In this document: positions 19,999 to 62,085 of the stretch, in pieces | Numbering within the stretch: position 1 is the stretch's first letter | Layout: each line of letters begins with the position of its first letter | IMG/VR virus record: IMGVR_UViG_3300034073_002120 | DNA: 64,000 nucleotides | Direction: 5' to 3' (one strand) | DNA from: a virus | Taxonomy: Duplodnaviria > Caudoviricetes | Program-made: the position numbers and the translations under genes | The notes under the pieces: generated by a model | What the model was told of the DNA's origin: nothing | Seen by the model: the letters and a program-made list of their open reading frames with translations, nothing else | Database searches by the model: none

Positions 19999-21729
19999 CT
20001 ATTTAATTTTTTTCTTAACGATATAATTTCCTAATACTAATGTATCCATTTCACAATCTAAAAAAGTTTCAATTGCATCCTTTGGTGAATTTACAATTGT
20101 TTTATCTTTTAAATTGAATGATGTGTTTAGGACAATCGGGTATCCATTATCTCTTTCTAATTGATTTAATAATGAATACATTCTTTTATGTTGTCTATTA
20201 TTTAAGGTTTGAATTCTTGCAGAACCATCTACGTGAGTAATTGCCGGTAAATTATCTATATGTTCTGAATTTACTTTTACCACTTGATTCATATAGGGAA
20301 CTAATAGTTTGTAATCAAAATATTTTAATCTATCCTCTTCTTTTACGATTGGAGCAAATGGTCTAAACCCTTCTCTTTTTTTGATTACTCTATTTACCCT
20401 ACTTTTCATTTGAGGGTCTCTTGGGTTAGCAAGTATAGAACGATTACCGAGTGCTCGAGAACCAAATTCCATTCTACCTTCGTACCAACCAATAACATTT
20501 CCATCTGTAATTTCCTTAGAAATAATTGGAATAAGTTCGGAGTGATTTTTGTATTCATACCATACATCGTTTGATTGTTTATCTAATTCTTCTTTAATTT
20601 CATCATTTGAATGCCATGGGCCTAAGTATGGATTCGTATTATCAACTCTACCAGCATTTTCAGTATGAGTATAATAATATTCTAAAGCACATCCAATTGC
20701 AGAACCGGCATCAGATGGTGCAGGTGGAATCCATAATTGTTTATATGGAGATTCTTTTGTTATTTTTCCGTTTGCAGTTCCATTATATGCACACCCACCA
20801 CTTAAACACAAACTATATGATGGATTAGTTGCAAACATTTTATTTATTAAACGGAAAAAGAAATATTCATATTGTGATTGAATTGTTGCTGCTAAATCCT
20901 TATGATGTTGTTCTATCTTATCTTCTGGTAATCGATTTGGAATACCTAATAATAATCCTAATTTTTCATTAAACATAGAATTGTTTGAATAATCATATGT
21001 GAAATAATCCATATTGATTTCAAACCCACCATCTTCGGTTTCTTTAATAAGTTCTTTAAAATGTTTTGTATAAACGTTCGGATTACCATATGGTGCAAGA
21101 CCCATTACCTTATACTCACCCTCATTTGGTTTAAATCCTAAGAATGCAGTAAATGCAGAATAAATCATTCCCAACGAATGTGGAAATTTAATATTCTGAA
21201 TTTTTGTGATTTTATTATTTTCTGCAAATGCTAAAACTGTGGTTTCCCATTCCCCAACACCATCTACTGAAATGATTGCTGAACGGTCAAATGGAGATGT
21301 GTAATAAGAATACGCAATGTGAGATAAATGATGGTCTCCGTATGATAAAATTATTTTATCGTTTGTGATTTCATAAATCTTACGTTCCGTTTCTTTATAT
21401 TTTTGTTTATTTTCTTTTAGAATAGCATTACGTTTGAAGTATTGTAATAACCCACCTCTCTTAGTGGTTTCTTCGATGCGTTCTAACTTTGTTGTTGGGT
21501 TTTCATAAAACGAAACTACCGATACATCCGCACCGGTAATTTTGAATTCGTTATATAACCAATTTATTGCATTAGTGGGAAAAGAAGAATCATGTTTAAT
21601 TCCCGTAAATCTTTCTTCTTCTACTGCTCCTAAAACTTTTCCATCTTTTAATAAACATGCTGCAGAATCATGATATCCACATGCTATTCCTAAAATATAT
21701 TTATTCTTCATCATAATCTTCATCACCAC
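19999..21729 (-). CDS. Carbamoyltransferase (NodU/CmcH family)
   Basis: LGIACGYHDSAAC, EEERFTGIKHD, HHLSH, VDGVGE, GEYKVMGLAPYG, EFGSRALGNRSIL, RPFAP, LNTSFN. Confidence 0.92.
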   Translation of the reverse strand: MVMKIMMKNKYILGIACGYHDSAACLLKDGKVLGAVEEERFTGIKHDSSFPTNAINWLYNEFKITGADVSVVSFYENPTTKLERIEETTKRGGLLQYFKRNAILKENKQKYKETERKIYEITNDKIILSYGDHHLSHIAYSYYTSPFDRSAIISVDGVGEWETTVLAFAENNKITKIQNIKFPHSLGMIYSAFTAFLGFKPNEGEYKVMGLAPYGNPNVYTKHFKELIKETEDGGFEINMDYFTYDYSNNSMFNEKLGLLLGIPNRLPEDKIEQHHKDLAATIQSQYEYFFFRLINKMFATNPSYSLCLSGGCAYNGTANGKITKESPYKQLWIPPAPSDAGSAIGCALEYYYTHTENAGRVDNTNPYLGPWHSNDEIKEELDKQSNDVWYEYKNHSELIPIISKEITDGNVIGWYEGRMEFGSRALGNRSILANPRDPQMKSRVNRVIKKREGFRPFAPIVKEEDRLKYFDYKLLVPYMNQVVKVNSEHIDNLPAITHVDGSARIQTLNNRQHKRMYSLLNQLERDNGYPIVLNTSFNLKDKTIVNSPKDAIETFLDCEMDTLVLGNYIVKKKIK

Positions 21730-34151: not shown

Positions 34152-36419
34152 ATGAAGGGAACATTTTTTTCAGCAGATTTTATTAAAGATACTACTGGCA
34201 ATTTAAGATTAATGGAAGTAAATACTGATACCGGTTGTGTACCAAATGGACTTTCTTTTTTAGATTACACAAATTTTATAGAAATACTATCTGCTTCAGC
34301 TATAACTGAATTACATACAATTCACAAAGAAATTCATACAGATATTGTAGCAGAATTATCACAAAGTATATTTTCAAACGCACCATTTATAATATCGTTT
34401 GATTCTACAATTGAGGAAGCTGGTACTATTTATCCAACTGCAATAACTGATAGTTCTACAAAATTTATCTTACGTTTTGCGTATGATGAAGCATCCATTT
34501 TTGATTCCGAATATGCTAAAAGTGTATTAGGACCATTACAATTATTTACAGAAAATAATGATACTGCATCAATTGTAGAATATTCGTTTTCATCATCCGT
34601 ACAAGGATTTGAATTTGATAATTTACCAAAAGATTTTAATACTACAAACATACCAGATGTGGCAGTTAAAGATACATCTGCAAATACAACACATCCAATA
34701 TCATTTTATAAGATTGGTAAATCATCTGAAACAACGGATGATAGATGGAGTGAATTCACTGGTTCATTATCCGATGATAAATTAATTATTAAATTTTACG
34801 AAGATGCTTCGGAAACAAAAGTAACATCGGTTCGTTCATTTAATATTATTTATGGTAGTAATTTAGATTTAATAAACGTTGGAAATTATACAACAGAAGG
34901 ATTATTTGTAAAACCAACATCAATTGAATACGATGATACACAAATAGCAAATGAGATTGATGTAAAACACTATTATGAATTAACAACAAATTATCCAAAA
35001 TTTACAAATGTTTATAATTGGGGTGGTATATTCGAAGAAGAAGAAATTATTAAAGCAGATGGTACTACCATATTGATTGGAAGTGCATCAGTTGGAGATG
35101 AATTTAAATCTTATTTTATAAATGGAGCACCTGATACCGATGTGGTTTCTACTTTTATGGCGTGGTCACATGCTGGTTCAGAATTACCATCTGGTTCATA
35201 TGCTACTAGTTCTGTTTTAATCAATAAAATAGAACAACCCCTTTTATACAATCTGGCATTTCATTTAACTATGGAAGATGGTTCTGAATTTAGAGCATCT
35301 GGTGGAGTTCATTTGTTAGTACATGATATTGATTTAAATTGTATTCGTTATGAATCAATAGCAAAATTAGATGAAACTAAACATCAGTTAATTAATTTAA
35401 CAGGTGGATTAATCAATATTGATTCAATTGTAATAGAAATATTAGATGGTGATTATAAAACATATATTATTGATATGGAGACATCTGATACTTATTTCTT
35501 ATCAAATGGAGAATTAAGTGTTAAGATTGTTACACATAACTGCTTCCCTGCTGGAACTAAAATTACTTTAGCAGATGGTACTCAAAAGAATATTGAAGAT
35601 TTATTATTAACTGATAAAATCTTAACATATAACGAATTTACAGGTGAAAAAACAGAAGGTGTTATTGGGAATATCGTAAAGAAAAAAGAACATCTATTAA
35701 TCAGACACAAAACTGATGATGGTAATGAAGTTAAATCTACTGCATTACATAAGTTCTATGTTAAAGGTAAAGGATGGATTGCTGCACAAGATATTACATT
35801 AAATGATATTCTAATTAATAGAAATGGCAATGAAACTATTGTAACTGAAAAGGAAACGATTGTTGGTGAGGTTGAGGTTTATCATATTTTAGATGTTAAA
35901 GATAATCACACATATTATGCTGAAAACTTATTAGTTCATAACTTTAAATATAGTGGTGGTTCTTGCTTTGTTGCTGGAACTAAGGTAGTTATGGGAGATG
36001 GTTCTCAAAAGAATATTGAAGATGTAGTAATTGGTGATGAGGTACTTTCATTTAATGAATCAACTTTACAAAATGAAGTTAAAAAAGTAATTGGTTTAAA
36101 AACTCCAATTCACAACGATTTAGTTAAATACGAATTTGCAAATCAAACTTCAATAGTATGTACGTTTGACCATCCATTCTATGTTGGTGATTTAGAATTG
36201 GCATCTTATACTCCATTCTTAACAAACAAACGTTACGAATTAGATAAAGAAGTTAAACAAATCAAAACTGGTGATATGGTTTACTTATCAAATGGTGTAA
36301 GTAGAACTGCTATTAAAGATATAATAGAGTTAGATGAGAAAGATACTCAAACTTATATCATAACAGTCGAAGATAATCACAATTTTTACGCTAACCAAAT
36401 TTTAGTACATAATAAATAA
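34152..36419 (+). CDS. ATP-grasp-like N-terminal domain plus three tandem Hint (intein-like/BIL) domains
   Basis: ADFIKDTTGNLRLMEVNTDTG; Hint1 G292-N463, Hint2 C464-N597, Hint3 C605-N754. Confidence 0.8.
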   Translation: MKGTFFSADFIKDTTGNLRLMEVNTDTGCVPNGLSFLDYTNFIEILSASAITELHTIHKEIHTDIVAELSQSIFSNAPFIISFDSTIEEAGTIYPTAITDSSTKFILRFAYDEASIFDSEYAKSVLGPLQLFTENNDTASIVEYSFSSSVQGFEFDNLPKDFNTTNIPDVAVKDTSANTTHPISFYKIGKSSETTDDRWSEFTGSLSDDKLIIKFYEDASETKVTSVRSFNIIYGSNLDLINVGNYTTEGLFVKPTSIEYDDTQIANEIDVKHYYELTTNYPKFTNVYNWGGIFEEEEIIKADGTTILIGSASVGDEFKSYFINGAPDTDVVSTFMAWSHAGSELPSGSYATSSVLINKIEQPLLYNLAFHLTMEDGSEFRASGGVHLLVHDIDLNCIRYESIAKLDETKHQLINLTGGLINIDSIVIEILDGDYKTYIIDMETSDTYFLSNGELSVKIVTHNCFPAGTKITLADGTQKNIEDLLLTDKILTYNEFTGEKTEGVIGNIVKKKEHLLIRHKTDDGNEVKSTALHKFYVKGKGWIAAQDITLNDILINRNGNETIVTEKETIVGEVEVYHILDVKDNHTYYAENLLVHNFKYSGGSCFVAGTKVVMGDGSQKNIEDVVIGDEVLSFNESTLQNEVKKVIGLKTPIHNDLVKYEFANQTSIVCTFDHPFYVGDLELASYTPFLTNKRYELDKEVKQIKTGDMVYLSNGVSRTAIKDIIELDEKDTQTYIITVEDNHNFYANQILVHNK

Positions 36420-49026: not shown

Positions 49027-49103
49027 TGGTGGGCCAGATAGGAATCGAACCTATTACCTACTGATTATGAGTCAGTTGCTCTAACCGAATGAGCTACAAG
49101 CCC
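49027..49103 (-). tRNA. tRNA with CAT anticodon (probably Ile2/lysidine)
   Basis: GGGCTTG/TGGCCC acceptor, ACTGA-CTCATAA-TCAGT, encoded CCA. Confidence 0.9.
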
Positions 49104-49158
49104 TTAATCGTTTATATTAACGATAAAGTTGAATATCGTATGTTTCAACGATAAATAA

Positions 49159-49278
49159 GGTGCCGGTGGTAGGATTGGATACCTACACGATGTCCATTTC
49201 GGATACACCCCCTTACTAGTATTACAGGACGTCTAATAGTTTTATTCGAATTCAAACTATTCTTTCCGCCACACCGGC
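49159..49278 (-). ncRNA. tRNA-like RNA with hairpin inserted in D-loop and non-canonical anticodon and T loops
   Basis: Perfect GCCGGTG/CACCGGC acceptor, A73, long variable arm. Confidence 0.7.
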
Positions 49279-49283
49279 ATATG

Positions 49284-49357
49284 TGGAGATGATAGGAATC
49301 GAACCTACGACCCTCTGCGTGCAAGGCAGATGCTCTAGCCAACTGAGCTACATCCCC
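49284..49357 (-). tRNA. tRNA-Ala(TGC)
   Basis: Canonical cloverleaf, G3-U70. Confidence 0.95.
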
Positions 49358-49364
49358 AATATTG

Positions 49365-49449
49365 TACCTGAAGAGGGACTTGAACCCACACGCCCATTAC
49401 TGGACAACAGATTTTAAGTCTGTCTTGTCTACCATTCCAACATTCAGGC
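49365..49449 (-). tRNA. tRNA-Leu(TAA)
   Basis: Cloverleaf with long variable arm. Confidence 0.93.
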
Positions 49450-49454
49450 AAATT

Positions 49455-49862
49455 TTATTTTACTTTATAAACTTTCACTTTTGAAAGTTTTGTTTGTTTG
49501 TCTTTTGGGTTGATTAAAATATCAATACGTTTTTTGTATCTCTTATTCATCACATCCCTTACCACATATTCACCATTGTACTTACCGGCATTTCTCAAAC
49601 GAACTCTCTGGCCGAACTTTAACTTACGTTTTAAATCCCTACTTACTGCAATGATTCTATGTTTCTTAGGATTACGTTTACTAATCTTAAATCCACTTGC
49701 TGTAATGTTTGGTGTAGAATCGGTTTCTTCTGCTGTTGCTTTGTATGTTGTGACAGTTACTATTCCTAATTCTTCTAAATTACTTTCTTCTATTTCTACA
49801 TTTGTGGTTGTTACTTCTAATGGAAATAACAACATAATAAAACTTATGAAAAGTTGTTGCAT
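49455..49862 (-). CDS. 3D-domain (MltA-like) protein
   Basis: VTVTTY, TASG, IAVSRD, VVRD, RIDI. Confidence 0.8.
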   Translation of the reverse strand: MQQLFISFIMLLFPLEVTTTNVEIEESNLEELGIVTVTTYKATAEETDSTPNITASGFKISKRNPKKHRIIAVSRDLKRKLKFGQRVRLRNAGKYNGEYVVRDVMNKRYKKRIDILINPKDKQTKLSKVKVYKVK

Positions 49863-49910
49863 AATTTTTGGGTTTGGTTTATTTTAAGGTTTAAAGTTTT
49901 AACTTTTATG

Positions 49911-49982
49911 TAGCCCCACTAAGAATCGAACTTAGAAATCCTCTTTAGAAGAGAGGTGTTATATCCATTTAACTATGGAGCC
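49911..49982 (-). tRNA. tRNA-Arg(TCT)
   Basis: CCTCT-CTTCTAA-AGAGG. Confidence 0.92.
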
Positions 49983-49983
49983 A

Positions 49984-50060
49984 TGGCGGTGTATACGAGA
50001 TTCGAACTCGTGGTCTCTTCCGTGACAGGGAAGCATGTTGGGCCTCTACACCAATACACC
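49984..50060 (-). tRNA. tRNA-Asp(GTC)
   Basis: Cloverleaf, G73, CCA. Confidence 0.95.
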
Positions 50061-50064
50061 GATT

Positions 50065-50169
50065 GCAGGGGATGTTTCCATTCTAGTGGAACAACCCCCG
50101 ATTGGTTTTCATCAACTGATGAATCCACTCTATGGTTACTATCTGACTCTTTTCGAACTTTCGGGGCTC
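50065..50169 (-). ncRNA. Candidate structured RNA
   Basis: CCCCGA/TCGGGG pairing, TTCATC/GATGAA hairpin, terminal GGGG..TTCC/GGAA..CCCC hairpin. Confidence 0.4.
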
Positions 50170-50195
50170 GTATCATTCAATTTCAGTAATCATTG

Positions 50196-50268
50196 AGCCT
50201 CCTACCGGGTTCGAACCAGTGACATTCTCATTACAAATGAGATGCTCTACCAACTGAGCTAAGGAGGC
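50196..50268 (-). tRNA. tRNA-Thr(TGT)
   Basis: Canonical cloverleaf. Confidence 0.95.
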
Positions 50269-50273
50269 AATTT

Positions 50274-50458
50274 ATGTATCAGTTCCATACCGACCTATTA
50301 GGAACTATTAGGGTTTCTCGGACGAGGTGCACAACCCAAATCGGCTATAATGTGTTATCAGTTACTTGGCTTCCACCTTCGTTGGAATTATTAAACGGGA
50401 TTTGAACCCACCTCATTGATGTATGCCTACATCAACTTTCACTGCACATTTGATACAT
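50274..50458 (-). ncRNA. 185-nt multi-stem RNA with internal T-loop motif
   Basis: ATGTATCA/TGATACAT closing stem, TTGATGTA/TACATCAA hairpin, GGGTTCAAATCCC. Confidence 0.6.
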
Positions 50459-50460
50459 TG

Positions 50461-50532
50461 TACTCCCAACGGGATTCGAACCCGTGACTCATCCGTGAAA
50501 GGGACGTGACTTAACCGCTTGTCGATGGGAGC
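50461..50532 (-). tRNA. tRNA-Glu(TTC)
   Basis: Canonical cloverleaf. Confidence 0.95.
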
Positions 50533-50599
50533 AGTTTCCAATTTTGATGGGCTCTTCGATTAGAGTGTTTCATCTAACCAGCACTTGAGATTGGGAACT
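50533..50599 (-). ncRNA. Candidate closed-stem small RNA
   Basis: AGTTCCCAAT/ATTGGAAACT ends; GGTTAGA/TCTAATC internal hairpin. Confidence 0.45.
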
Positions 50600-50604
50600 C
50601 CTTG

Positions 50605-50727
50605 TTGTCAATACTGGATTCGAACCAGTGATAGTCTCCATCAGCACATTGATAAAGCAGAGACTCCGTTCTTCTGTCAGAAAGTTTGAATCAATGTTTC
50701 GGGGCGTGTTCCTCTCGCCTTTTGACA
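50605..50727 (-). ncRNA. tRNA-like RNA with expanded anticodon and variable arms
   Basis: TGTCAA/TTGACA acceptor, GGCG/CGCC D-arm, canonical ACTGG-TTCGAAT-CCAGT T-arm. Confidence 0.7.
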
Positions 50728-50735
50728 ATTTTATT

Positions 50736-50808
50736 GGGTGTAAGGACGGTATCGAACCGACTTCCCTGGCTCCACAAACCAGTACATCACCTTAATGCTT
50801 CAAACACC
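50736..50808 (-). tRNA. tRNA-His(GTG)
   Basis: G-1/C73, CTGGT-TTGTGGA-GCCAG. Confidence 0.88.
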
Positions 50809-50844
50809 ATATTGTTTTAATAACCATCATCTCAAAGAACATTG

Positions 50845-50877
50845 TAAAGATACGAAATTATTTTAACATTTCCTAAT
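50845..50877 (-). promoter_or_regulatory. Bacteroidota-type promoter followed by boxA-like GTTCTTTGAG
   Basis: ATTAGGAAA...TTCGTATCTTTA; boxA-like site at 50831-50840. Confidence 0.7.
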
Positions 50878-50896
50878 CTTTTTTAACATTTTTTTG

Positions 50897-50969
50897 TTGC
50901 GTAGGGTGGGAATCGAACCCACTTATTTTGGCTTATGAGACCAATGAAATACCTTACCTCCCCCTCGCG
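50897..50969 (-). tRNA. tRNA-Met(CAT), atypical acceptor
   Basis: TTGGT-CTCATAA-GCCAA, canonical T-arm. Confidence 0.8.
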
Positions 50970-51002
50970 ATGTATTAGGGAACGTTCTCCCTAATTGTTT
51001 AA

Positions 51003-51035
51003 CAAATATACGAATTTATTTTAATATATCCAAAT
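51003..51035 (-). promoter_or_regulatory. Bacteroidota-type promoter
   Basis: ATTTGGATA...TTCGTATATTTG. Confidence 0.75.
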
Positions 51036-51041
51036 AAATCT

Positions 51042-51500
51042 TTATTTATTTTTTACTAAATGGTCTGCACAATATGTTGCAATAGGACCTAATGATTTGT
51101 ATCTTACATTATATCCCATACCTTCAACCATACCAACTGCTTGTCTGAATACTTCGTTAGATTTGAAACGTGGGTCTGGATTTAAATCCACATCAATCCA
51201 CTTTGGTTTTTTAACACCATTCTCTTTTAAGTATTCAGCAGTTTCAATTGCGAACCAAACTTCTTGTAATAACCTTACTGAACGAACTCTTTCTCTTTCA
51301 GTATTCCATCTTCTATATAAAACGTGTCCTCCTTTACCTTGTCTATATAATGCAACTACAATTGCGTAAATAGTTTTAGTACCGGAGTTTTGTGAATCAC
51401 AACCAATTAAGATTTCAGCATCACTATACGTTTCCATATATTCTTTGATATATGTTACTAATTGAATTTCTTCGCCAGATTGTAATTTTTTAAAAACCAT
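51042..51500 (-). CDS. RNase H-like YkuK/DUF458 family protein
   Basis: ILIGCDSQ, RLLQEV, DVDLN, ADHL. Confidence 0.8.
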   Translation of the reverse strand: MVFKKLQSGEEIQLVTYIKEYMETYSDAEILIGCDSQNSGTKTIYAIVVALYRQGKGGHVLYRRWNTERERVRSVRLLQEVWFAIETAEYLKENGVKKPKWIDVDLNPDPRFKSNEVFRQAVGMVEGMGYNVRYKSLGPIATYCADHLVKNK

Positions 51501-51524
51501 TTTATTTCCTTTTTTAATAAGTAG

Positions 51525-51598
51525 TGTCCATAGTAGGATTCGAACCTACACAAACTGGTTTCTAAGACCAGTGCGGTTGCCAATTACGCCATACGGAC
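51525..51598 (-). tRNA. tRNA-Leu(TAG) lacking the long variable arm
   Basis: CTGGT-CTTAGAA-ACCAG; 5-nt variable loop. Confidence 0.8.
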
Positions 51599-51607
51599 AA
51601 TTTTCAG

Positions 51608-51693
51608 TAGAGAGTGAGAGGCTCGAACTCTCGCGACTTTCACATCCTACCTCGTTAGCAATGAGGCCCCTTCACCAACTTGGGTAACTCTCT
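51608..51693 (-). tRNA. tRNA-Ser(GCT)
   Basis: Class II cloverleaf. Confidence 0.9.
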
Positions 51694-51759
51694 ATGTTGT
51701 ATAATATATTATTCATTATATACCTTTTTAGGGGTTTTTGTATAATATATTATCCATCG

Positions 51760-51829
51760 TTGCGTGTTTGAGGTTCGAACTCAATTGACTTTCCTTATGA
51801 GAGAAAGTTCTTTTCCACTAAGTCACGCA
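51760..51829 (-). tRNA. tRNA-Met(CAT), degenerate (short D region, 7-bp anticodon stem)
   Basis: ACTTTCT-CTCATAA-GGAAAGT; TTGAG-TTCGAAC-CTCAA. Confidence 0.65.
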
Positions 51830-51888
51830 GTTTTGTGGAATTGAACCACACTCTCCTCGTCAGGCGATACGACCAGTATCCTTTATCG

Positions 51889-51960
51889 AGTCACGTATTG
51901 GATTCGAACCAATGTAAGAGGTTTTGCAGACCTCCGCCTAACCAACTCGGCCAACCTGAC
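51889..51960 (-). tRNA. tRNA-Cys(GCA)
   Basis: Cloverleaf, U73. Confidence 0.93.
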
Positions 51961-51968
51961 ATTTAATG

Positions 51969-52040
51969 TAGTTCTATTAGGATTCGAACCCAAACTTTTT
52001 CATCCGTAGTGAAAGGTGCTATCCGTTACACCATAGAACC
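51969..52040 (-). tRNA. tRNA-Arg(ACG)
   Basis: TTTCA-CTACGGA-TGAAA. Confidence 0.92.
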
Positions 52041-52044
52041 ATTA

Positions 52045-52242
52045 TTATTTCCATTGAGTCTTTCGGTTGTGTTTCCAACTTTTATACTCTCTGAACTTAT
52101 GTGAGTAAATTGGTTTACCATTTCCATGTCTACCCCAAATCTTTGAAGGTGCACAATCATAATACCAACTACCACATCTTTTAGAACAAATGAAACAATA
52201 GTTCCATTCCATTCTCATTCTCTTTACTCTTTCTTCTTTCAT
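52045..52242 (-). CDS. Small basic Cys-containing protein
   Basis: YCFICSKRCG; ends YKSWKHNRKTQWK. Confidence 0.55.
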   Translation of the reverse strand: MKEERVKRMRMEWNYCFICSKRCGSWYYDCAPSKIWGRHGNGKPIYSHKFREYKSWKHNRKTQWK

Positions 52243-52293
52243 TTTACATTAGGTTTGTTTACCTAATGTTTGTCAAATAATTGTTTCATAGTT

Positions 52294-52686
52294 TTACATT
52301 TTATTTTCCTCATAGTGATGTATTCTATGACAATTGGCACATAATACATCACACTTTTCTATTTCCTTTAAGAACTTTTCTTTGGATACTGATAATTTAG
52401 AACTAGCCAAAGTGAATTCTTTTTTAGATGAATCTCTATGATGAAAATCTAAAGCTGCAGGATGTGAAAATCCACATTTACTACATTTAAGGTTTGATTT
52501 ATATTCTACATACCATTCCTTAAATTCTTTTCTTCTTTGAGATTGTCTTATTTTAGCTTTCTCTCTTTCCACTTCTTTATTTCGTTCATACCATTCATTT
52601 CTATATGAACGCATCTTATCAGCGTTTTGTTCTTTCCATTCTTTTGTTGCCATAATATATTCTTTAATATAAATATAGTATCTCAA
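52294..52686 (-). CDS. HNH endonuclease
   Basis: CSKCG, LDFHH, LCANCHRIHH; likely start MATKEW at 52653. Confidence 0.85.
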   Translation of the reverse strand: MRYYIYIKEYIMATKEWKEQNADKMRSYRNEWYERNKEVEREKAKIRQSQRRKEFKEWYVEYKSNLKCSKCGFSHPAALDFHHRDSSKKEFTLASSKLSVSKEKFLKEIEKCDVLCANCHRIHHYEENKM

Positions 52687-52718
52687 ACAAAAAAGTTGTT
52701 TTGGAAACTTTTATTTAG

Positions 52719-52789
52719 CACGGGTAGTAGGATTCGAACCCACATCAAAGCTTTTGGAGAGCCGTATGCTACCATTGCACCATACCCAT
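52719..52789 (-). tRNA. tRNA-Trp(CCA)
   Basis: CTCCAAA loop, G73. Confidence 0.9.
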
Positions 52790-52796
52790 AATTAAT

Positions 52797-52858
52797 CAAG
52801 AAGATAGCCAGAAATTAGTGACGTCAAATCTCTTTAAGCTATATGAACTATCTTCTTG
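52797..52858 (-). ncRNA. Candidate closed-stem small RNA
   Basis: 11-bp perfect terminal stem CAAGAAGATAG/CTATCTTCTTG. Confidence 0.5.
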
Positions 52859-52887
52859 TTAGGATTGGTTAATTACTCCAATCTTCG

Positions 52888-52961
52888 TTGGTAGTGCGGG
52901 ATTCGAACCTGCCACCTTCTCGGTATCAGCGAGATGCTCTAACCAAATGAGCTAACTACCA
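52888..52961 (-). tRNA. tRNA-Ile(GAT)
   Basis: TCTCG-CTGATAC-CGAGA. Confidence 0.93.
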
Positions 52962-52990
52962 ATAAGTGGTGGATGTATGTTCATCACATA

Positions 52991-53533
52991 CTATTGGGTT
53001 TCCACCAAACCCCTTGTCATTTCAATGAACTTATTTCTATATTCATCTATTTTATCAATCACTTCATCTTTATATTTCGAATGAACATATTGATGATGTG
53101 TTGGACAAAGTGGTATAAGATTTTTAGGGTCATTGTTATAGTGATTTTCATCATAGTGATGAACTGCAACTATTTTACTTTCCCCACAAATTACACATTC
53201 CTTTGTATGATGTTCAAAACAAGTACTTCTATACGAATCATCTTTCCAATTTGGATTTTGTTTTCCACTTCTGAAAAATGTGTTTGAACATTTATAGGAA
53301 CAAGTAGTTTTTTCTCTCTTATTACCAATTTGTGTTTCAAATTCATTACCACATACTGGACAATTCTTTTTAATTGCTTCATATTTAGGTAATCTTACTT
53401 TAAGATGGTCTATGGATATATTCTTTTCAGAAACCATATCATAGAACTTCTTTTGTGTTTTGCCATTATAATATCCGTATAACTTTTTAATTGCTTCGGA
53501 TTTTGTTTTACATTCTTTTATTATATTTTCCAT
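52991..53533 (-). CDS. HNH endonuclease with zinc ribbon
   Basis: CPVCG...TCSYKC; CVICG, VHHYD, NLIPLCPTHH. Confidence 0.85.
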   Translation of the reverse strand: MENIIKECKTKSEAIKKLYGYYNGKTQKKFYDMVSEKNISIDHLKVRLPKYEAIKKNCPVCGNEFETQIGNKREKTTCSYKCSNTFFRSGKQNPNWKDDSYRSTCFEHHTKECVICGESKIVAVHHYDENHYNNDPKNLIPLCPTHHQYVHSKYKDEVIDKIDEYRNKFIEMTRGLVETQ

Positions 53534-53591
53534 ACTAATAAATATAACAAAATCGTAAAAACATAATTTGACAATGTAATCATTACGATTG

Positions 53592-53666
53592 TAGGGTAGA
53601 GAGGACTCGAACCTCCACGATGTCTTGCTCCCAAAGCAAGCGGCCTAGCCATTGGCCCACTACCCT
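53592..53666 (-). tRNA. tRNA-Pro(TGG)
   Basis: CTTGC-TTTGGGA-GCAAG. Confidence 0.92.
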
Positions 53667-53721
53667 ATGGTGGATGGATTATTTTTTTAAAGTAGAATTC
53701 GCCAACCTCAAAACTACTATG

Positions 53722-53795
53722 TGAACCCGAATGGATTCGAACCATTGACTCCCTCATTAAAAGTGAGGTGCTCTAACCAACTGAGCTACGGATTC
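53722..53795 (-). tRNA. tRNA-Lys(TTT)
   Basis: Canonical cloverleaf. Confidence 0.95.
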
Positions 53796-53800
53796 AATTG

Positions 53801-53873
53801 TGGGACCTCAAGGAATCGAACCTTGTCCTTCCGCTCTTCAGGCGGACGTACGCACCAGCTATACGAAAGTCCC
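53801..53873 (-). tRNA. tRNA-Phe(GAA)
   Basis: TCCGC-CTGAAGA-GCGGA. Confidence 0.92.
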
Positions 53874-53879
53874 ATTTTG

Positions 53880-53961
53880 TGCCGCCGGTAGGACTCGAAC
53901 CTACGAACTCCGAAGAGGAGGGATTTACAGTCCCTTGCAATTGCCACTATGCGACGTCGGC
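53880..53961 (-). tRNA. tRNA-Tyr(GTA)
   Basis: Class II cloverleaf. Confidence 0.93.
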
Positions 53962-53967
53962 GTTAAA

Positions 53968-54044
53968 TGGTAGGAGATATAGGATTCGAACCTATGACCC
54001 TTTGGATGTAAACCAAATGCTCTAACCAACTGAGCTAATCTCCT
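53968..54044 (-). tRNA. tRNA-Val(TAC)
   Basis: Canonical cloverleaf, CCA. Confidence 0.95.
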
Positions 54045-54050
54045 AAATTG

Positions 54051-54121
54051 TTACTCGAGCAGGATTCGAACCTACCCTAAATGCCCCAAAAACACTTGTG
54101 CTACCGCTACACCATCGAGCA
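54051..54121 (-). tRNA. tRNA-Gln(TTG)
   Basis: U1-A72, AGTGT-TTTTGGG-GCATT. Confidence 0.85.
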
Positions 54122-54136
54122 ATTTAAAATTTATTG

Positions 54137-54208
54137 AGCGAGTAGTCAGAATCGAACTGACATATCCTACTTGGAAGGAAGGCATAATAGCCGTTATACT
54201 ATACTCGC
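54137..54208 (-). tRNA. tRNA-Gly(TCC)
   Basis: GCG/CGC acceptor, U73. Confidence 0.92.
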
Positions 54209-54226
54209 GTTTCAAAGAACTAATTG

Positions 54227-54298
54227 AGGGTAGGGAGAATTTCGAAATCTCGACCTGATGATTAACAGTCATCTGCTCTGCCTCTGAGCTACCAACCC
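54227..54298 (-). tRNA. tRNA-Asn(GTT)
   Basis: GATGA-CTGTTAA-TCATC. Confidence 0.9.
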
Positions 54299-54303
54299 GT
54301 AAA

Positions 54304-54339
54304 TAAAAAAACCCTTAACTTTTTTATCAGTTAAGGGTT
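54304..54339 (-). terminator. Intrinsic terminator directly upstream of the Asn-Gly-Gln-Val-Tyr-Phe-Lys tRNA run
   Basis: aacccttaac-tgataaaaaa-gttaagggtt plus T run. Confidence 0.8.
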
Positions 54340-54371
54340 CTTCAAATATTTTCTATTTAAATCTTACATCA

Positions 54372-54530
54372 TTACCATCCAGATGCTTCCCTTAACGTTG
54401 TACTAATATAATCCACCTTGCCCAAATTGAACACTGCCGGAGTTGCTATCGTACTAAACATACGATTCCCTTGCCACTCACATCTTTGTGTAGGCAGTTG
54501 GTTGTTCATATGTAATGCTAAGTTTTTCAT
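54372..54530 (-). CDS. 52-aa putative leader peptide
   Basis: MKNLALHMNNQLPTQRCEWQGNRMFSTIATPAVFNLGKVDYISTTLREASGW behind ATATTTATA at 54535. Confidence 0.55.
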   Translation of the reverse strand: MKNLALHMNNQLPTQRCEWQGNRMFSTIATPAVFNLGKVDYISTTLREASGW

Positions 54531-54599
54531 CTTGTATAAATATCTAAAAATTATTTTTTCGTAACGTTTGTTTGTTTTTTATTATTAGCTAAATAAAAA

Positions 54600-54667
54600 A
54601 ACTAATCCATCTTCAAAATACACCTACAAGTCATGCTCTGGTTAATATCAGCCTCGAAGGATTAGTT
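54600..54667 (-). ncRNA. Candidate closed-stem small RNA
   Basis: AACTAATCC/GGATTAGTT terminal stem extended by CTTC/GAAG. Confidence 0.45.
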
Positions 54668-54677
54668 CGTTTAAAAA

Positions 54678-54802
54678 ATGAAAGATTTGTAGGGTGGTTC
54701 TTTCAAAAGGACTAGCTACATCCGTTGTTTACCATCAACACTAATTCGTATTGGTTGCGATTCTTTAAGGCAAAAATCCCCTACTGAAAACCATATCTTC
54801 AT
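54678..54802 (-). ncRNA. Candidate multi-stem RNA
   Basis: ATGAAGAT/ATCTTTCAT and GTAGGG/CCCTAC nested stems. Confidence 0.45.
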
Positions 54803-54884
54803 ACTATTTGTCTTTTTTATTTAAGTGGAATTTTCAGTTATTGGAGAGATACACCCAACCTGTCTGTCGTAAACCACTACGAAG

Positions 54885-54925
54885 CTATCTATATTGGAAT
54901 CGAACCAACTTTAACCATTTAGATA
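54885..54925 (-). ncRNA. Minimal tRNA mimic (acceptor stem plus T-arm, no anticodon arm)
   Basis: TATCTA/TAGATA, ATGGTTAAA linker, GTTGG-TTCGATT-CCAAT. Confidence 0.55.
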
Positions 54926-54932
54926 AAAATAT

Positions 54933-55766
54933 AAGGATGAGAATACTCCATATTGTGAACCAGCTTTATAAGGGTTATTAGTTGCCTTAATTTCCACTTC
55001 CTTTTGAGAAGTACCAATTCAATGTGGGTAAGTAATGCCTACCACTCATAAAGTTACAAACTACTCTCTCTTTACTCTACCTCTTCGAGTTTGCCAACCC
55101 GATTCACACCTCGCGATGCTAGAAGCTTTTCGAAAGAATCACATTTCCCTTGAGAGGATTTGTGGCAGGGAACATCTCCCTACTAAGTACACACCTTTCG
55201 TCTGCAACTGGTAACCACTTTCTCTTTATTTGTTTTTATAGTTTGCACCTAAAGCAAATTGAGTTTGGTTTGTAGATGGATTCAGGTAGTGGATTACCAC
55301 TAGCTCCGTTCCACTTTAAAGAACGGAATACTATACTACCCGATACGGCATCTCTACCGTCATACTTTAAGACTACTTCAATACCCACTCTTTGGTGAGA
55401 GGTAGGTAAGGATAATAACAACACCACTTGTACATCATCATACCTTTCGGTTTTAAGTAACCTTTAATATTGAATCACACAATAATAAGGAGAGATTAAG
55501 TCCTTACTTTTTGTATTAACTCTATGGATTATTTTTATTGGTGTTCCCACCTCAACTGAACTTCTACTTAGCCCAGTCATCAAACCATTTCGCTACGGAG
55601 TTACCCTCACTACTAAGGTCTAATGATATTCCACTTGCATACTTGAGTTCCATTTCTGAAACCGCAAACCGTCTAACCAAACGATTCACTTTATCCTTGT
55701 TTCCAAGTTTATTTAACCACCATATGCGGCGGGTATGCATTATGTAGAACGAGTCTACTATATGCA
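54933..55766 (-). ncRNA. Giant structured ncRNA, probably GOLLD
   Basis: ~830 nt, GC above background, dense GNRA-capped hairpins (cttggaaacaag, accgaaaggt), 3' GGTTCACAATATGGAGTATTCTCATCC; own promoter; inside a tRNA array. Family call from recall, needs cmsearch. Confidence 0.72.
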
Positions 55767-55818
55767 ATATTTTCAATAATTTTAAAGAACGTTTTTTGTA
55801 ATCCTTTTGATTACTTTG

Positions 55819-55851
55819 TAAAGATACGAAATGTTTTTCACATTTCCAAAT
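55819..55851 (-). promoter_or_regulatory. Promoter of the giant RNA, followed by hairpin and boxA-like GTTCTTTAAA
   Basis: ATTTGGAAA...TTCGTATCTTTA; gtaatc/gattac hairpin; boxA-like site at 55781-55790. Confidence 0.75.
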
Positions 55852-55861
55852 ATTTTTACAA

Positions 55862-56074
55862 TTATTTTTTAATTATTTTTTTCACATTTTCAACGTGGTC
55901 ATCAATTAACTTTGATAATCTTTGATTACTAAGTAAACTAAGATACAAATTGAAGAACAACATTGCTGAGATGAATGCATATGTATCGAATCTTTTTTCG
56001 ATTACACTTATTATACCACTTAATAATGACATAACACATCCAGTAATTAAAAGAACTTTTTGAAACTTTACCAT
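55862..56074 (-). CDS. Small membrane protein
   Basis: Two hydrophobic helices; behind promoter 56161. Confidence 0.55.
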   Translation of the reverse strand: MVKFQKVLLITGCVMSLLSGIISVIEKRFDTYAFISAMLFFNLYLSLLSNQRLSKLIDDHVENVKKIIKK

Positions 56075-56160
56075 AATTTATTTTTTTTTAAATTGAACAA
56101 TACTACTTTCGTTTTGTTGTTTGATTCATAGATTGCGTTTGGTTGGTTTCTTTTACTTTG

Positions 56161-56193
56161 TAAAGATACGAAAACTTTTTGATATTTCCAAAT
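56161..56193 (-). promoter_or_regulatory. Bacteroidota-type promoter
   Basis: ATTTGGAAA...TTCGTATCTTTA. Confidence 0.75.
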
Positions 56194-56214
56194 CTTTTTT
56201 AAAGTTTTTTTTTT

Positions 56215-56280
56215 GAGTAAGTTAGTATGACGTTTGGCTCTTCACCCAAAGGTTTAGATAACCGGTTCTCTTACTTACTC
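56215..56280 (-). ncRNA. Candidate closed-stem small RNA
   Basis: GAGTAAGT/ACTTACTC 8-bp terminal stem; TTTGG/CCAAA internal hairpin. Confidence 0.45.
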
Positions 56281-56284
56281 TTAG

Positions 56285-56356
56285 TTGCAGGGGAAGGATT
56301 CGAACCTCCGACCTATGGGTTATGAGCCCACCAAGCTACCACTGCTCTACCCTGCG
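56285..56356 (-). tRNA. Initiator tRNA-fMet(CAT)
   Basis: C1.A72 mismatch; GGG/CCC anticodon stem. Confidence 0.93.
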
Positions 56357-56458
56357 ATATAATATTTATTAATAATTGAAATGTTGTACATTTACGGACG
56401 TCTTATTTACGATTAGTCTACTATTCCACAATTATTATATTTCTCAAAGAACGTTTTT

Positions 56459-56534
56459 GTAATCAGATTCAACCATTTGGTATAGTAAACTTCGTCACTC
56501 TTACTTCAGGTACATTTTTACGATTTCTGATTAC
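56459..56534 (-). ncRNA. Candidate closed-stem leader RNA
   Basis: GTAATCAGA/TCTGATTAC 9-bp stem right after promoter; boxA-like site at 56444-56452. Confidence 0.45.
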
Positions 56535-56538
56535 TTTG

Positions 56539-56571
56539 TAAAGATACGAAATTAATTTCACAATTCCAAAT
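56539..56571 (-). promoter_or_regulatory. Bacteroidota-type promoter
   Basis: ATTTGGAAT...TTCGTATCTTTA. Confidence 0.75.
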
Positions 56572-56685
56572 CTTTTTTCATTTATTTTTTTTATTATTAA
56601 AATAATGGTATCCGGCTTTATTCCTTACGGGGTCACATAGTCGGTTTTATTACTATTGGCTTCAACCTTTATTTCAATAACAATA

Positions 56686-56718
56686 CAAAGATACGAAATG
56701 TTTTTGATATTTCCAAAT
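56686..56718 (-). promoter_or_regulatory. Bacteroidota-type promoter
   Basis: ATTTGGAAA...TTCGTATCTTTG. Confidence 0.78.
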
Positions 56719-56775
56719 CTTTTGTAAAGTTTTTTTTCGTATGTATAAATATATAAAAATATACAAAACGTAAAA

Positions 56776-57147
56776 TGGTGGAGATGGAGGGAGTCGAACC
56801 CTCGTCCAAAATATGGTTTAATAAACCTCATTCACAAGCTTAGTTAGTTTTTCTTAACTAACAAAATATATAAAGATTTATACATTCATTATCATTAATG
56901 TTTCCAATTCGATTTCGGGTTCAATTGGGTTTCCACCTGATTTCACATTCTATTTCAAGTCCCACGATGTGTGCGGGAGTAATTAGGCAGCTACTGCGTA
57001 ATCAGCACCAACGAATGCCATAGCATCTTCGAAGGTCATTGTAGATAATTCTACTGCGTTTATTGTTCGATAGGTGTTTAAGGATTTCCATCTAATCCTG
57101 CTTGCAATTATACTAACACTTCATACCTGTCAAAACCGGGCATCCCC
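56776..57147 (-). ncRNA. ssrA: tmRNA; tag AVELSTMTFEDAMAFVGADYAVAA* at 56983-57057
   Basis: 5' GGGGATG...TTTGACAG, 3' GGTTCGACTCCCTCCATCTCCACCA with G3-U70; internal frame ending YAVAA-stop. Confidence 0.93.
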
Positions 57148-57172
57148 ATATATTAAAGAACTTTTTACTTTT

Positions 57173-57344
57173 GCTGTAATGGGAGGATTCGAACACTCCA
57201 CGGTGCGATTCAGTTAGTAACACATTCTTGCAAGATGGTGGTCTACCCCATATTACTAACCTATTTCGTTCTCACCACCCTCGAGACAGGAGGGCTTGTC
57301 TGCCAGATTTGCACACGTACAAATCATTTTCCAACACACTACAA
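57173..57344 (-). ncRNA. 172-nt tRNA-like RNA (D-loop hairpin insert, CTGTCTC loop, very long variable arm)
   Basis: TTGTAGT/ATTACAG acceptor, CCCTC/GAGGG stem, GGTTAGTAA/TTACTAACT, TTCGAAT T-loop. Confidence 0.75.
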
Positions 57345-57353
57345 TTTAATTTG

Positions 57354-57439
57354 CGGAAGGGGTAGGATTCGAACCCACGGTACCTTGCAGTACACTTGAT
57401 TTCAAGTCAAGCGCGATAGACCAACTCTGCCACCCTTCC
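57354..57439 (-). tRNA. tRNA-Ser(TGA)
   Basis: Class II cloverleaf, G73. Confidence 0.95.
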
Positions 57440-60366: not shown

Positions 60367-62085
60367 TTATATAAGATTTCTCTTTACAATTTCGGGTAAC
60401 GATATTAATATCGGCTCTGGTGTATCTTCTACCACCTCCGGTTCAATTATTTGGGTTTCTATTTCTTCTTTCAATTCTAAATACAATCCTCTATTATAAA
60501 CTGAATATGGTATTCCAATTTTTATAAAAAGTTCTTCGGCCCTATTTAATCTATCCAATCTATCCATCGGTGTATTGTATTTTGTTGAAAAATTTACACC
60601 ATTTATATATTCAATCCATTCTTGCTCAGTATCTCTCCATCGTATTAATAAAGGTTGATGTATTAGAAAAGCAGAACAAGTTAAAATTTCAGACATTACA
60701 TCATAATATTCTGCCACAAAATCTAATGTCTTTTGAAAATCTTCTTCACTTTCGTTTAAGTATCCGATAATTAATTGCATTGCAAACATCAACGGCCATT
60801 CATTTTCTTTATTTATTTGTCTTACGTTTTCAAATATCTCTCTAACACCTTCCATATTATTATACTTTTTCATATGGTCTAATACGGGTTCGGATGCAGA
60901 TTCAAAACCGGTAATCATTTTCATCAATCCAGCTTTACGATATAAACGCATTGTATCTAAATCTCGCATAGCAGATTGTAATCTCATATTACCACCCCAT
61001 GTGATATTGATATTTTTTTCTATTATTTTTTCACAAAATTCCTTCAACCATTTTGGATTACCATTAATGATTGAATCATGACAAAAGAAATTAGTATGAC
61101 CCTTAGCAACCCAGTGTTCGATTTCTTCAATAACATTATCAACGTTTCTATAACGAAACTCTGGTATAAAATCCGGCACTGAGCAGAATGAACATCTATA
61201 AGGACATCCTCTACTCATTACTAATGGAACATTATATTGATATATCGATTTATAATAGTAATTATCTTCTAATGAACTATAATCTGGATATGGAAGTGAA
61301 TCCATATTTACATTCTGACGAGGTCTATTATGAATAAATACCCCATTACATTGCCAAACCAATCCATTAATTTTCATTAAAGATTCTTCACTCCAATCCG
61401 ATTTAAGAATTTCAACGAATGTGATTTCACCATCTCCTCTAGAAATAGCATCTATGAATGTATAATTTTTTGTTACATAATTTGAATTAGGTAATTTACC
61501 AAAATCTAATACTTCAACTCCATTACCGCCCACTAATATTTTTACATGAGGGTATTTTTCTTTTATCAATTTAGCAATAGCAAGTGTTGCATCAACATTA
61601 CCATCGATAATACTAAATCCTAAAAATGCAGGATTAGCTTTTTCAATATATCTACCCACAAAACCATATGCAATATCAAATATCTCTTTATGATTATAAA
61701 GTAATTCGTATTGTCCTTGTTTTGAATAGGTGTTAAAAAGATTAAAAAACTCACCTTGTTTATCAGGTGGATTTAAGAAAAAATAATCAATTACAGGGTC
61801 TATAATTGCAACCCTTAAATCTGGATGAAATTTATCTATATAAGATTTTAATGCAACTATACCGGAATAGTAACCAGATTCATTAATGTTTGGGACTTGT
61901 AATAATAAACAATCTTGTTCTTCAATATCTTCAAAATGAAATTTATGTTGAATTTCAATTTTAGAATTTTTTGCAATATTATTTTGTCTGATGTATTGTA
62001 GTAAATCTACTTTTACATCAAAAATTTCAGTACCATTTTCTAGTTGGTCTTTTAATCTAATTTCAGTATTTGTAAGTTCTTGCAT
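60367..62085 (-). CDS. Cobalamin-binding radical SAM enzyme
   Basis: B12-binding-like region (LGFSII...ILVGG), SRGCPYRCSFC, GFES; ends KRNLI. Confidence 0.88.
   Translation of the reverse strand: MQELTNTEIRLKDQLENGTEIFDVKVDLLQYIRQNNIAKNSKIEIQHKFHFEDIEEQDCLLLQVPNINESGYYSGIVALKSYIDKFHPDLRVAIIDPVIDYFFLNPPDKQGEFFNLFNTYSKQGQYELLYNHKEIFDIAYGFVGRYIEKANPAFLGFSIIDGNVDATLAIAKLIKEKYPHVKILVGGNGVEVLDFGKLPNSNYVTKNYTFIDAISRGDGEITFVEILKSDWSEESLMKINGLVWQCNGVFIHNRPRQNVNMDSLPYPDYSSLEDNYYYKSIYQYNVPLVMSRGCPYRCSFCSVPDFIPEFRYRNVDNVIEEIEHWVAKGHTNFFCHDSIINGNPKWLKEFCEKIIEKNINITWGGNMRLQSAMRDLDTMRLYRKAGLMKMITGFESASEPVLDHMKKYNNMEGVREIFENVRQINKENEWPLMFAMQLIIGYLNESEEDFQKTLDFVAEYYDVMSEILTCSAFLIHQPLLIRWRDTEQEWIEYINGVNFSTKYNTPMDRLDRLNRAEELFIKIGIPYSVYNRGLYLELKEEIETQIIEPEVVEDTPEPILISLPEIVKRNLI

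Follow-up and report, generated by a model that had tools for sequence, protein, structure and literature searches.

A full-length GOLLD RNA gene of the env-38 subtype within a phage tRNA array, with a putative rRNA-type leader and a predicted RNase P signal at its 3' end

The locus described here raises the question of what a phage encodes in more than 800 nt of DNA set among its tRNA genes, and how a long untranslated RNA would be transcribed and released from such a place. The window, by which we mean the whole 64,000-nt stretch of viral DNA that was analyzed (Caudoviricetes; IMG/VR record IMGVR_UViG_3300034073_002120), holds, on the minus strand, 25 tRNA genes and a tmRNA in one array that extends over 49027-57439, covers all 20 amino acids (ARAGORN) and contains the region in question. 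A first-pass annotation had proposed that this region, 54933-55766, is a GOLLD-like giant RNA of ~830 nt, transcribed from its own promoter at 55819 past a boxA-like site. The tmRNA of the array (56776-57147, minus strand) encodes the tag peptide AVELSTMTFEDAMAFVGADYAVAA, and related GOLLD loci also carry tmRNAs, with different tags. Elsewhere in the window Pfam identifies a Hint/intein-domain protein (34152-36419, plus strand), a carbamoyltransferase (19999-21729, minus strand) and a B12-binding radical SAM protein (60367-62085, minus strand).

Identity and architecture of the RNA

Our findings identify the region as the gene for a full-length GOLLD RNA on the minus strand. This is an ordinary and unambiguous copy of an RNA already known, not a new kind, and any Rfam-based annotation of this window would find it. 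The Rfam GOLLD model RF02032, searched with Infernal as the first-pass annotation had proposed, matches 54934-55343 on the minus strand with 264.4 bits against a cut-off of 150 (E = 3e-74), and the alignment, which is not truncated, spans positions 1-416 of the 416 in the model with all of its helices aligned. ROOL and the other large Rfam RNAs gave no match at the gathering threshold, and a permissive Rfam search of 54300-56290 (E <= 1) returned, besides GOLLD, only chance-level matches and none to ROOL. RF02032 describes the conserved 3' half of GOLLD only, and the 5' domain lies outside the Rfam model. The 3' domain here is the matched segment, 54934-55343, and includes an A-rich linker at about 55283-55216 and a long-range pseudoknot. 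The 5' domain, which is delimited by our alignment of homologs (alignment A2) and by sequence blocks of the GOLLD env-38 RNA, occupies 55344-55738 on the minus strand, or reaches to 55766 when an extra hairpin is included. The predicted mature RNA is about 805-833 nt long, running from 55766 or 55738 to 54934 on the minus strand, with 395-423 nt of it upstream of the Rfam match. The boundaries drawn in the first-pass annotation agree well with this architecture, the one at 54933/54934 being the 3' end of the Rfam match and the one at 55766 the start of the hairpin just 5' of the core.

Both domains possess a conserved, covarying secondary structure. In the 5' domain (alignment A2, 34 distinct sequences) the consensus comprises 104 base pairs with 97.9% of cells paired, and 70 of the 104 pairs show compensatory changes; when the 3' partners were slid by 1-3 columns as a control, pairing fell to 37-41% and compensatory pairs to 15-28, and column shuffles gave at most 56 compensatory pairs against the 70 observed. 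The 3' domain (35 sequences) behaves in the same way, with 83 consensus pairs, 97.6% of cells paired and compensatory changes in 67 of the 83 (20-31 when slid), and its pseudoknot arms AGUUGCAGAC and GUUUGUAACU form 10 pairs. The covariation on homologs that had been suggested as a check is therefore strong in both halves of the molecule. The four hairpins picked out by eye in the first-pass annotation are all present on the minus strand. The two with GNRA caps, cttggaaacaag (55709-55698) and accgaaaggt (55452-55443), covary in homologs, for example from CTTG/CAAG to CCAC/GTGG to CTAC/GTAG, and the GAAA loops of both are invariant; the other two, ccgttc/gaacgg (55326-55321 with 55311-55306) and tagtgg/ccacta (55302-55297 with 55292-55287), belong to the first helix of the Rfam model.

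The closest structural reference is GOLLD env-38, an 833-nt marine RNA encoded downstream of a tRNA-Met gene (JCVI_SCAF_1096627009515/1239-410) which, transcribed in vitro, forms a D7 14-mer cage 380 Å across as seen by cryo-EM (PDB 9MEE), with residues 1-420 (the 5' domain) as the caps, residues 421-833 as the rings and a disordered linker facing the interior (Kretsch et al. 2025, PMC12286853). The start of the env-38 construct, the part of its sequence that was available for comparison, shares with the 5' domain here the blocks GGCCGC..TATGGTC, AAATAAA, CGAAAG, GGATAAAGTG, TGCGGTTTC and GAGCTTGAGTAGGCAAGTG.GATATC. The domains also agree in length, measuring 420 + 413 nt in env-38 and 423 + 410 nt here when counted from 55766 (395 + 410 nt from the first core helix). 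These shared blocks and matching dimensions place the window copy, as judged by sequence, in the env-38 subtype in both domains, and it is reasonable to expect from homology to this one RNA that the window copy would form a cage as well.

Alternative readings of the region itself differ greatly in their merit. That it encodes small proteins, or belongs to ROOL, a group I or II intron or an rRNA fragment, has a negligible chance of being correct. Open reading frames of 63-70 aa are present on either strand and would suit a coding function, but stops or frameshifts interrupt the longest of these (70 aa, 55564-55776, minus strand, within the 5' domain) in 32 of 34 homologs, leaving it intact in just the window and L018, a nearly identical relative. 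Substitutions track base-pairing and not codons, and GOLLD alone passes any Rfam threshold in the region. The protein-coding reading is rejected on the broken frame, and the earlier judgment that the region has no credible ORF stands. The GC content, 0.36-0.42 over 54900-55800 as compared to 0.23-0.28 in the flanking intergenic DNA at 55800-56250, likewise confirms an observation made at first pass. A more substantial alternative concerns the state of the RNA, namely that GOLLD in the cell is a monomer or a ribonucleoprotein, for instance bound to ribosomes, with the 14-mer cage arising only in vitro. Observations of the cage are limited to in-vitro-transcribed env-38, and pull-downs in which ribosomes bind GOLLD are cited in the same work (PMC12286853); against this, both domains that make the cage contacts are conserved and covarying here, and lengths and domain boundaries agree with env-38. 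We consider the monomer or ribonucleoprotein improbable, and favor the cage as the predicted assembly.

Relatives and presence in RNA libraries

Comparison with phage genomes by blastn returned two uncultured huge phages, LR745206 (634,780 bp) and LR756502 (642,428 bp), with matches confined to the 5' domain; Rfam locates a full GOLLD in each, of 287 and 275 bits respectively, beside tRNA genes. A 16-nt block of the 5' domain that is invariant in the window and these two genomes served as a probe for scanning IMG/VR, and identified 54 loci, of which about 46 align over the full length (nhmmer) and which lie on viral contigs of up to 483 kb. Location in phages and near tRNAs is thus seen among the homologs too, on viral contigs and beside the tRNAs of the 634-642 kb phage genomes. 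The closest relative, L018, has the same tRNA neighbors and a GOLLD of 268 bits; its record, a fragment of 45 kb with a completeness rating of 20%, points to a genome of ~225 kb. In contrast to these viral occurrences, a motif of the 5' domain with 20 specified bases had 0 matches in 185,579 representative bacterial and archaeal genomes, and GOLLD was absent from 14 control genomes. The presence of the subtype in at least 46 viral contigs and in none of the 185,579 prokaryote genomes suggests that env-38-type GOLLDs belong to phages that are not resident in host genomes. The carrier of the copy described here is most probably a large uncultivated aquatic phage with a host among the Bacteroidota. 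Of the earlier designation as a GOLLD member from a Bacteroidota phage, the GOLLD assignment and the viral setting of the relatives are borne out, and the host phylum, more tentatively, is suggested by the type of promoter and by a boxA that resembles those of 16S leaders together with its flanks. The ~46 relatives make a clean set for comparing env-38-type GOLLDs, in which the 5' domain missing from the Rfam model is also represented, and with a likely host phylum named, cultivable phage-host pairs for genetics might be found there.

RNA libraries contain this RNA or close variants of it. Four metatranscriptome studies (sediment, two freshwater and seawater; one run per study, compared over 54200-56400) yielded contigs that fall on 54940-55757 and are 90-100% alike to the window. 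The summed depths of these contigs reach hundreds or thousands, though they were assembled from several strains and cannot reveal where a transcript starts or ends, from which strand it comes or how abundant it is. At most, the contig ends near 54940-54961 and 55712-55757 hint weakly at transcript ends, and the stretches that the RNA contigs leave uncovered (54200-54640, 54792-54865 and 55902-56271) should not be equated with silent ones. More broadly, a dozen studies of soil, subsurface, freshwater and aquatic samples have the element in their DNA libraries, and six RNA libraries contain part of it. The first-pass claim of a transcript is supported to this extent; that annotation had named the lack of a covariance-model match, of covariation and of a transcript as what would speak against GOLLD, and a match, covariation and RNA-library contigs were all found.

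Promoter, leader and 3' tRNA-like element

Promoters in the Bacteroidota follow the consensus TTTG-N19-21-TAnnTTTG. The promoter reported at first pass at 55819 is confirmed as one of this type: it extends over 55819-55850 on the minus strand, consists of a -33 element TTTG (55850-55847), a 20-nt spacer and a -7 element TATCTTTA (55826-55819), and fits the consensus with one mismatch. Its 21-nt core, TTTCGTATCTTTACAAAG, occurs in 5 copies in the window, all on the minus strand and with 0 expected, and these precede groups of tRNA genes, one small ORF and GOLLD. Among the 34 GOLLD homologs, 20 have an upstream promoter of this kind. Transcription would start near 55813, some 45 nt upstream of 55766. 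A generic sigma-70 scan of 54200-56400, the model of which is not that of Bacteroidota promoters, found 7 promoter-like sites as against 8.5 in shuffled sequence, and a terminator scan of the same interval found none, with a loop limit that misses the hairpin at 54341-54302.

Several further elements on the minus strand accompany these signals. That hairpin is part of a strong hairpin with a U-tract (54296-54345, -19.3 kcal/mol, z = -5.1) that ends 3 nt before tRNA-Asn, follows a 52-aa ORF (54372-54530) and is a possible attenuator. A long closed hairpin followed by U7 lies at 54594-54672 (-18.8 kcal/mol, z = -2.5). In L017, L027 and L040 the inner part of this hairpin, ..GAGGCUGAUAUUAACCAGAGCAUGAC.., is found again downstream of GOLLD, and a single RNA-library contig falls nearby on 54674-54771; the hairpin may terminate the GOLLD unit or represent a small conserved RNA. 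Between tRNA-Met and GOLLD is a 70-aa ORF with two hydrophobic segments (55862-56074) and its own promoter copy (56173), and L018 is without the spacing that holds this ORF. A sequence of ~50 nt, ..AAAAUGUACCUGAAGUAAGAG..CCAAAUGG.., follows the promoter at 56551 (~56480-56530) and is also found within the tip of the GOLLD leader hairpin in L018 (~6410-6480) and L038, as a recurrent small insert.

Between the predicted start and the GOLLD core lies a leader in which a hairpin, a boxA and a second hairpin follow one another. The first hairpin, GUAAUC-AAAAG-GAUUAC (55798-55814, minus strand), takes the boxB position in a predicted fold of 55733-55815 (-13.9 kcal/mol, z = -3.1), and in homologs this place is taken by a hairpin whose sequence is unrelated. 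Behind it comes the boxA, GTTCTTTAAAA (55790-55780), which with the adjoining TTATTG occupies 55774-55790 on the minus strand, is single-stranded in the predicted fold and was delimited by its match to the consensus and by conservation among homologs. It agrees at every position with the boxA consensus GYTCTTTAANA as published (Baniulyte et al. 2017, PMC5725501). The second hairpin, UGCAU..GUAGA-loop-UCUAC..AUGCA (55736-55766, minus strand), is the extra hairpin counted above; it covaries with its counterparts in L018, L017 and L023, which have UGUAC/GUACA in place of UGCAU/AUGCA, and the first core helix follows it directly.

The boxA that the first-pass annotation had noticed proves to be a general feature of these leaders, as the motif G[CT]TCTTT[AG]A occurs within 200 nt upstream of the core in 32 of 34 distinct GOLLD leaders and in 2.5% of background windows. 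It lies 15 to 74 nt from the core depending on the clade, and is kept even where a tRNA and not a promoter precedes the leader. For comparison with the presumed host phylum we fetched 120 loci with Bacteroidota-type 16S 5' ends, 101 of which had enough upstream sequence; the strict boxA motif is found in 51 of these 101 leaders, upstream of the 16S start at a median distance of 135 nt, and in 0 of 54 control stretches inside the 16S gene. Several of the 16S leaders read aacGTTCTTTGAAaatattgaaa, nearly identical to the aacGTTCTTTAAAattattgaaa of the window. The extended form, boxA plus [A/T]ATTG, is rarer (13 of 34 GOLLD leaders, 14 of 101 16S leaders), so only the core boxA can be called general. 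A literature search pairing GOLLD with boxA returned spurious matches only. By the criteria of sequence and fold the leader is of the rrn antitermination type, and would be expected to bind Nus factors. Motifs like boxA also occur at tRNA groups of the array, GTTCTTTGAA at 54211-54220 (minus strand) between tRNA-Asn and tRNA-Gly, and GTTCTTTGAG at 50828-50837 (minus strand) directly after a promoter at 50857 and ahead of tRNA-His, from which these groups seem to use the same signal.

At the opposite end of the RNA, 8 nt after the last base of the Rfam match, begins a 41-nt tRNA-like minihelix (54885-54925, minus strand) composed of an acceptor stem TATCTA/TAGATA, a 10-nt linker, a T-arm GTTGG-TTCGATT-CCAAT and the discriminator G. 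The acceptor stem has 6 bp and an A-A mismatch at the seventh position, the T-loop is canonical, and there is no encoded CCA, no D arm and no anticodon arm. Neither ARAGORN nor the Rfam tRNA model at E <= 1 called a tRNA at 54885-54925, and the element is tRNA-derived and not itself a tRNA. Its origin is visible in the relatives, where the same position, 5-11 nt after the GOLLD end, is taken by a genuine tRNA (Gly in L023, Glu in L040), by a full-size tRNA-like element with a defective anticodon arm (L019, L034, L002, L048, L031, L001, L036 and L004) or by the same minihelix (L018, L006 and L028), the acceptor stem of L028 being compensatory to that of the window (TTTTAC/GTAAAA versus TATCTA/TAGATA). 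In about half of the homologs the GOLLD 3' end is instead followed by a plain hairpin or an intrinsic terminator and by nothing tRNA-like, so the tRNA-like route is one of several and not universal. In a clade that includes L016 (6429-6480) and L022, the element after GOLLD resembles the minihelix but has a non-canonical T-loop (AGAGG-ATCGTTT-CCTCT, with CGCAA/TTGCG on its flanks) and may be a processing signal that has decayed further.

Bacterial RNase P is said, on the strength of work by McClain, Guerrier-Takada and Altman in 1987, to cleave minihelices made of an acceptor stem and a T-arm. Since the parts that survive here are those that RNase P needs in this model substrate, a cleavage signal is the likeliest role of the element, and a full tRNA at the same place in relatives likewise makes this a probable RNase P site. 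On these grounds the minihelix is probably an RNase P cleavage signal that would free the GOLLD 3' end, with a predicted cut at 54926/54925.

Each of the two flanking signals can also be read otherwise, and the evidence bears unequally on the two cases. The GTTCTTTRAA motif of the leader might not be a Nus site at all, and might instead form part of the GOLLD fold, serve as a site for RNase E/G or other processing, or be a DNA site for a phage regulator. One clade, in which no more than 15 nt separate the motif from the core and the TATTGG after the motif enters the first core helix, leans in this direction, as does the strict motif being found in only half of the sampled Bacteroidota 16S leaders; the motif nevertheless stays constant while its distance to the core varies, is left unpaired by the consensus fold, matches the published consensus exactly, agrees with Bacteroidota 16S leaders down to the flanking bases and follows a hairpin as in rRNA leaders, which makes a role other than Nus binding distinctly unlikely. 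The reading of the minihelix as an RNase P signal faces the stronger competitor, in which it is a decayed tRNA remnant without a role and the 3' end arises by read-through and exonuclease trimming or through another endonuclease. Its folding energy is no better than that of shuffled sequence (z = -0.68), it has neither CCA nor a perfect seventh acceptor pair, and many homologs manage with a hairpin or terminator, all as one would expect of a remnant. Decay without selection, however, accounts poorly for the loss of the D and anticodon arms alongside survival of just those parts that RNase P recognizes (acceptor stem, T-stem and TTCGATT loop), for compensatory substitution in the acceptor stem between the window and L028, or for a spacing of 5-11 nt that is kept across divergent clades by tRNAs, defective tRNAs and minihelices alike. 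We therefore retain the RNase P signal as the preferred reading and regard the remnant as unlikely, though deserving more weight than the alternatives considered for the leader or the cage.

Proposed production and parallels with known systems

Taken together, an env-38-type GOLLD gene with an rRNA-style leader, a 3' end released by RNase P and a cage predicted by homology make up an account that we hold with considerable confidence. In this account, host RNA polymerase would start near 55813 from the promoter of Bacteroidota sigma-A type, and the leader, copying the hairpin-then-boxA order of the host rRNA-operon leader, would recruit NusB/S10 and other Nus factors, allowing the long untranslated RNA to be transcribed without Rho termination and helping it to fold. 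RNase P would then cut on the 5' side of the minihelix, 8 nt downstream of GOLLD, and the released 3' end would be trimmed back to the terminal hairpin. The RNA would assemble, as env-38 does, into a D7 14-mer cage with the 5' domains as caps and the 3' domains as rings. This provides a concrete picture of how such an RNA may be produced, with transcription of the rRNA type in front and processing of the tRNA type behind, for an RNA that belongs to the handful of natural ones known to form a cage without protein.

We tentatively suggest a broader generalization, plausible but somewhat short of an even case, that jumbo phages of Bacteroidota make GOLLD as a miniature rRNA operon and that in several lineages the adjoining tRNA has been whittled down to a minimal RNase P substrate that is retained solely for processing of the 3' end. 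Of the observations made here, the stepwise reduction from tRNA to minihelix behind GOLLD is the most interesting new one; if the suggestion is true, the minihelix would be a phage counterpart of MALAT1-mascRNA with its evolutionary intermediates still visible. As for function, the constant linkage to tRNA arrays and a tmRNA and the reported binding to ribosomes (cited in PMC12286853) favor a role in translation, and with low confidence we propose that GOLLD takes part in reprogramming or takeover of host translation by the phage.

The known systems closest to this locus each share a part of its organization. Among GOLLDs, env-38 has the same 3' domain (RF02032) and, by shared sequence blocks in the accessible part of its construct, the same type of 5' domain as the window copy, and both have a short linker without a tRNA, an aquatic metagenome origin and a tRNA-Met gene upstream. 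The env-38 sequence differs, being roughly 70-80% alike to the window copy over the stretch available for comparison, and its construct, as far as the source presents it, begins at the first core helix, leaving promoter, leader hairpin, boxA, extra hairpin and 3' tRNA-like element outside. The GOLLDs of Lactobacillales prophages and tRNA arrays, which reportedly go back to Weinberg et al. in 2009, are more distant. Like the copy here, those of Lactobacillales prophages and Mycobacterium tRNA arrays have the conserved 3' domain and are linked to phages and tRNA arrays (Morgado et al. 2020, PMC7549688), but they lie in bacterial genomes or prophages, whereas the subtype here was found only in viral contigs, and their 5' domains are described as divergent (PMC12286853).

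For the way in which the RNA would be made, the bacterial rRNA operon, with its leader of boxB, boxA and boxC and its NusA/B/E/G-SuhB-S4 factors, offers the same order of a host-type promoter, a hairpin and a single-stranded boxA ahead of a long structured untranslated RNA, followed here by a tRNA-like element. The cargo in the present case, unlike that of the rRNA operon, is a phage RNA, and the long leader-trailer helix that encloses rRNA is not seen here. At the 3' end the nearest parallel is MALAT1/mascRNA, whose 3' end is said, following Wilusz et al. in 2008, to be generated by RNase P at a tRNA-like structure. The two share a tRNA-like element without a working anticodon arm directly behind a long non-coding RNA. 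MALAT1, however, is eukaryotic and nuclear with an end protected by a triple helix, and the element here is a predicted substrate reduced to an acceptor/T-arm minihelix which, unlike mascRNA, descends from genuine phage tRNA genes.
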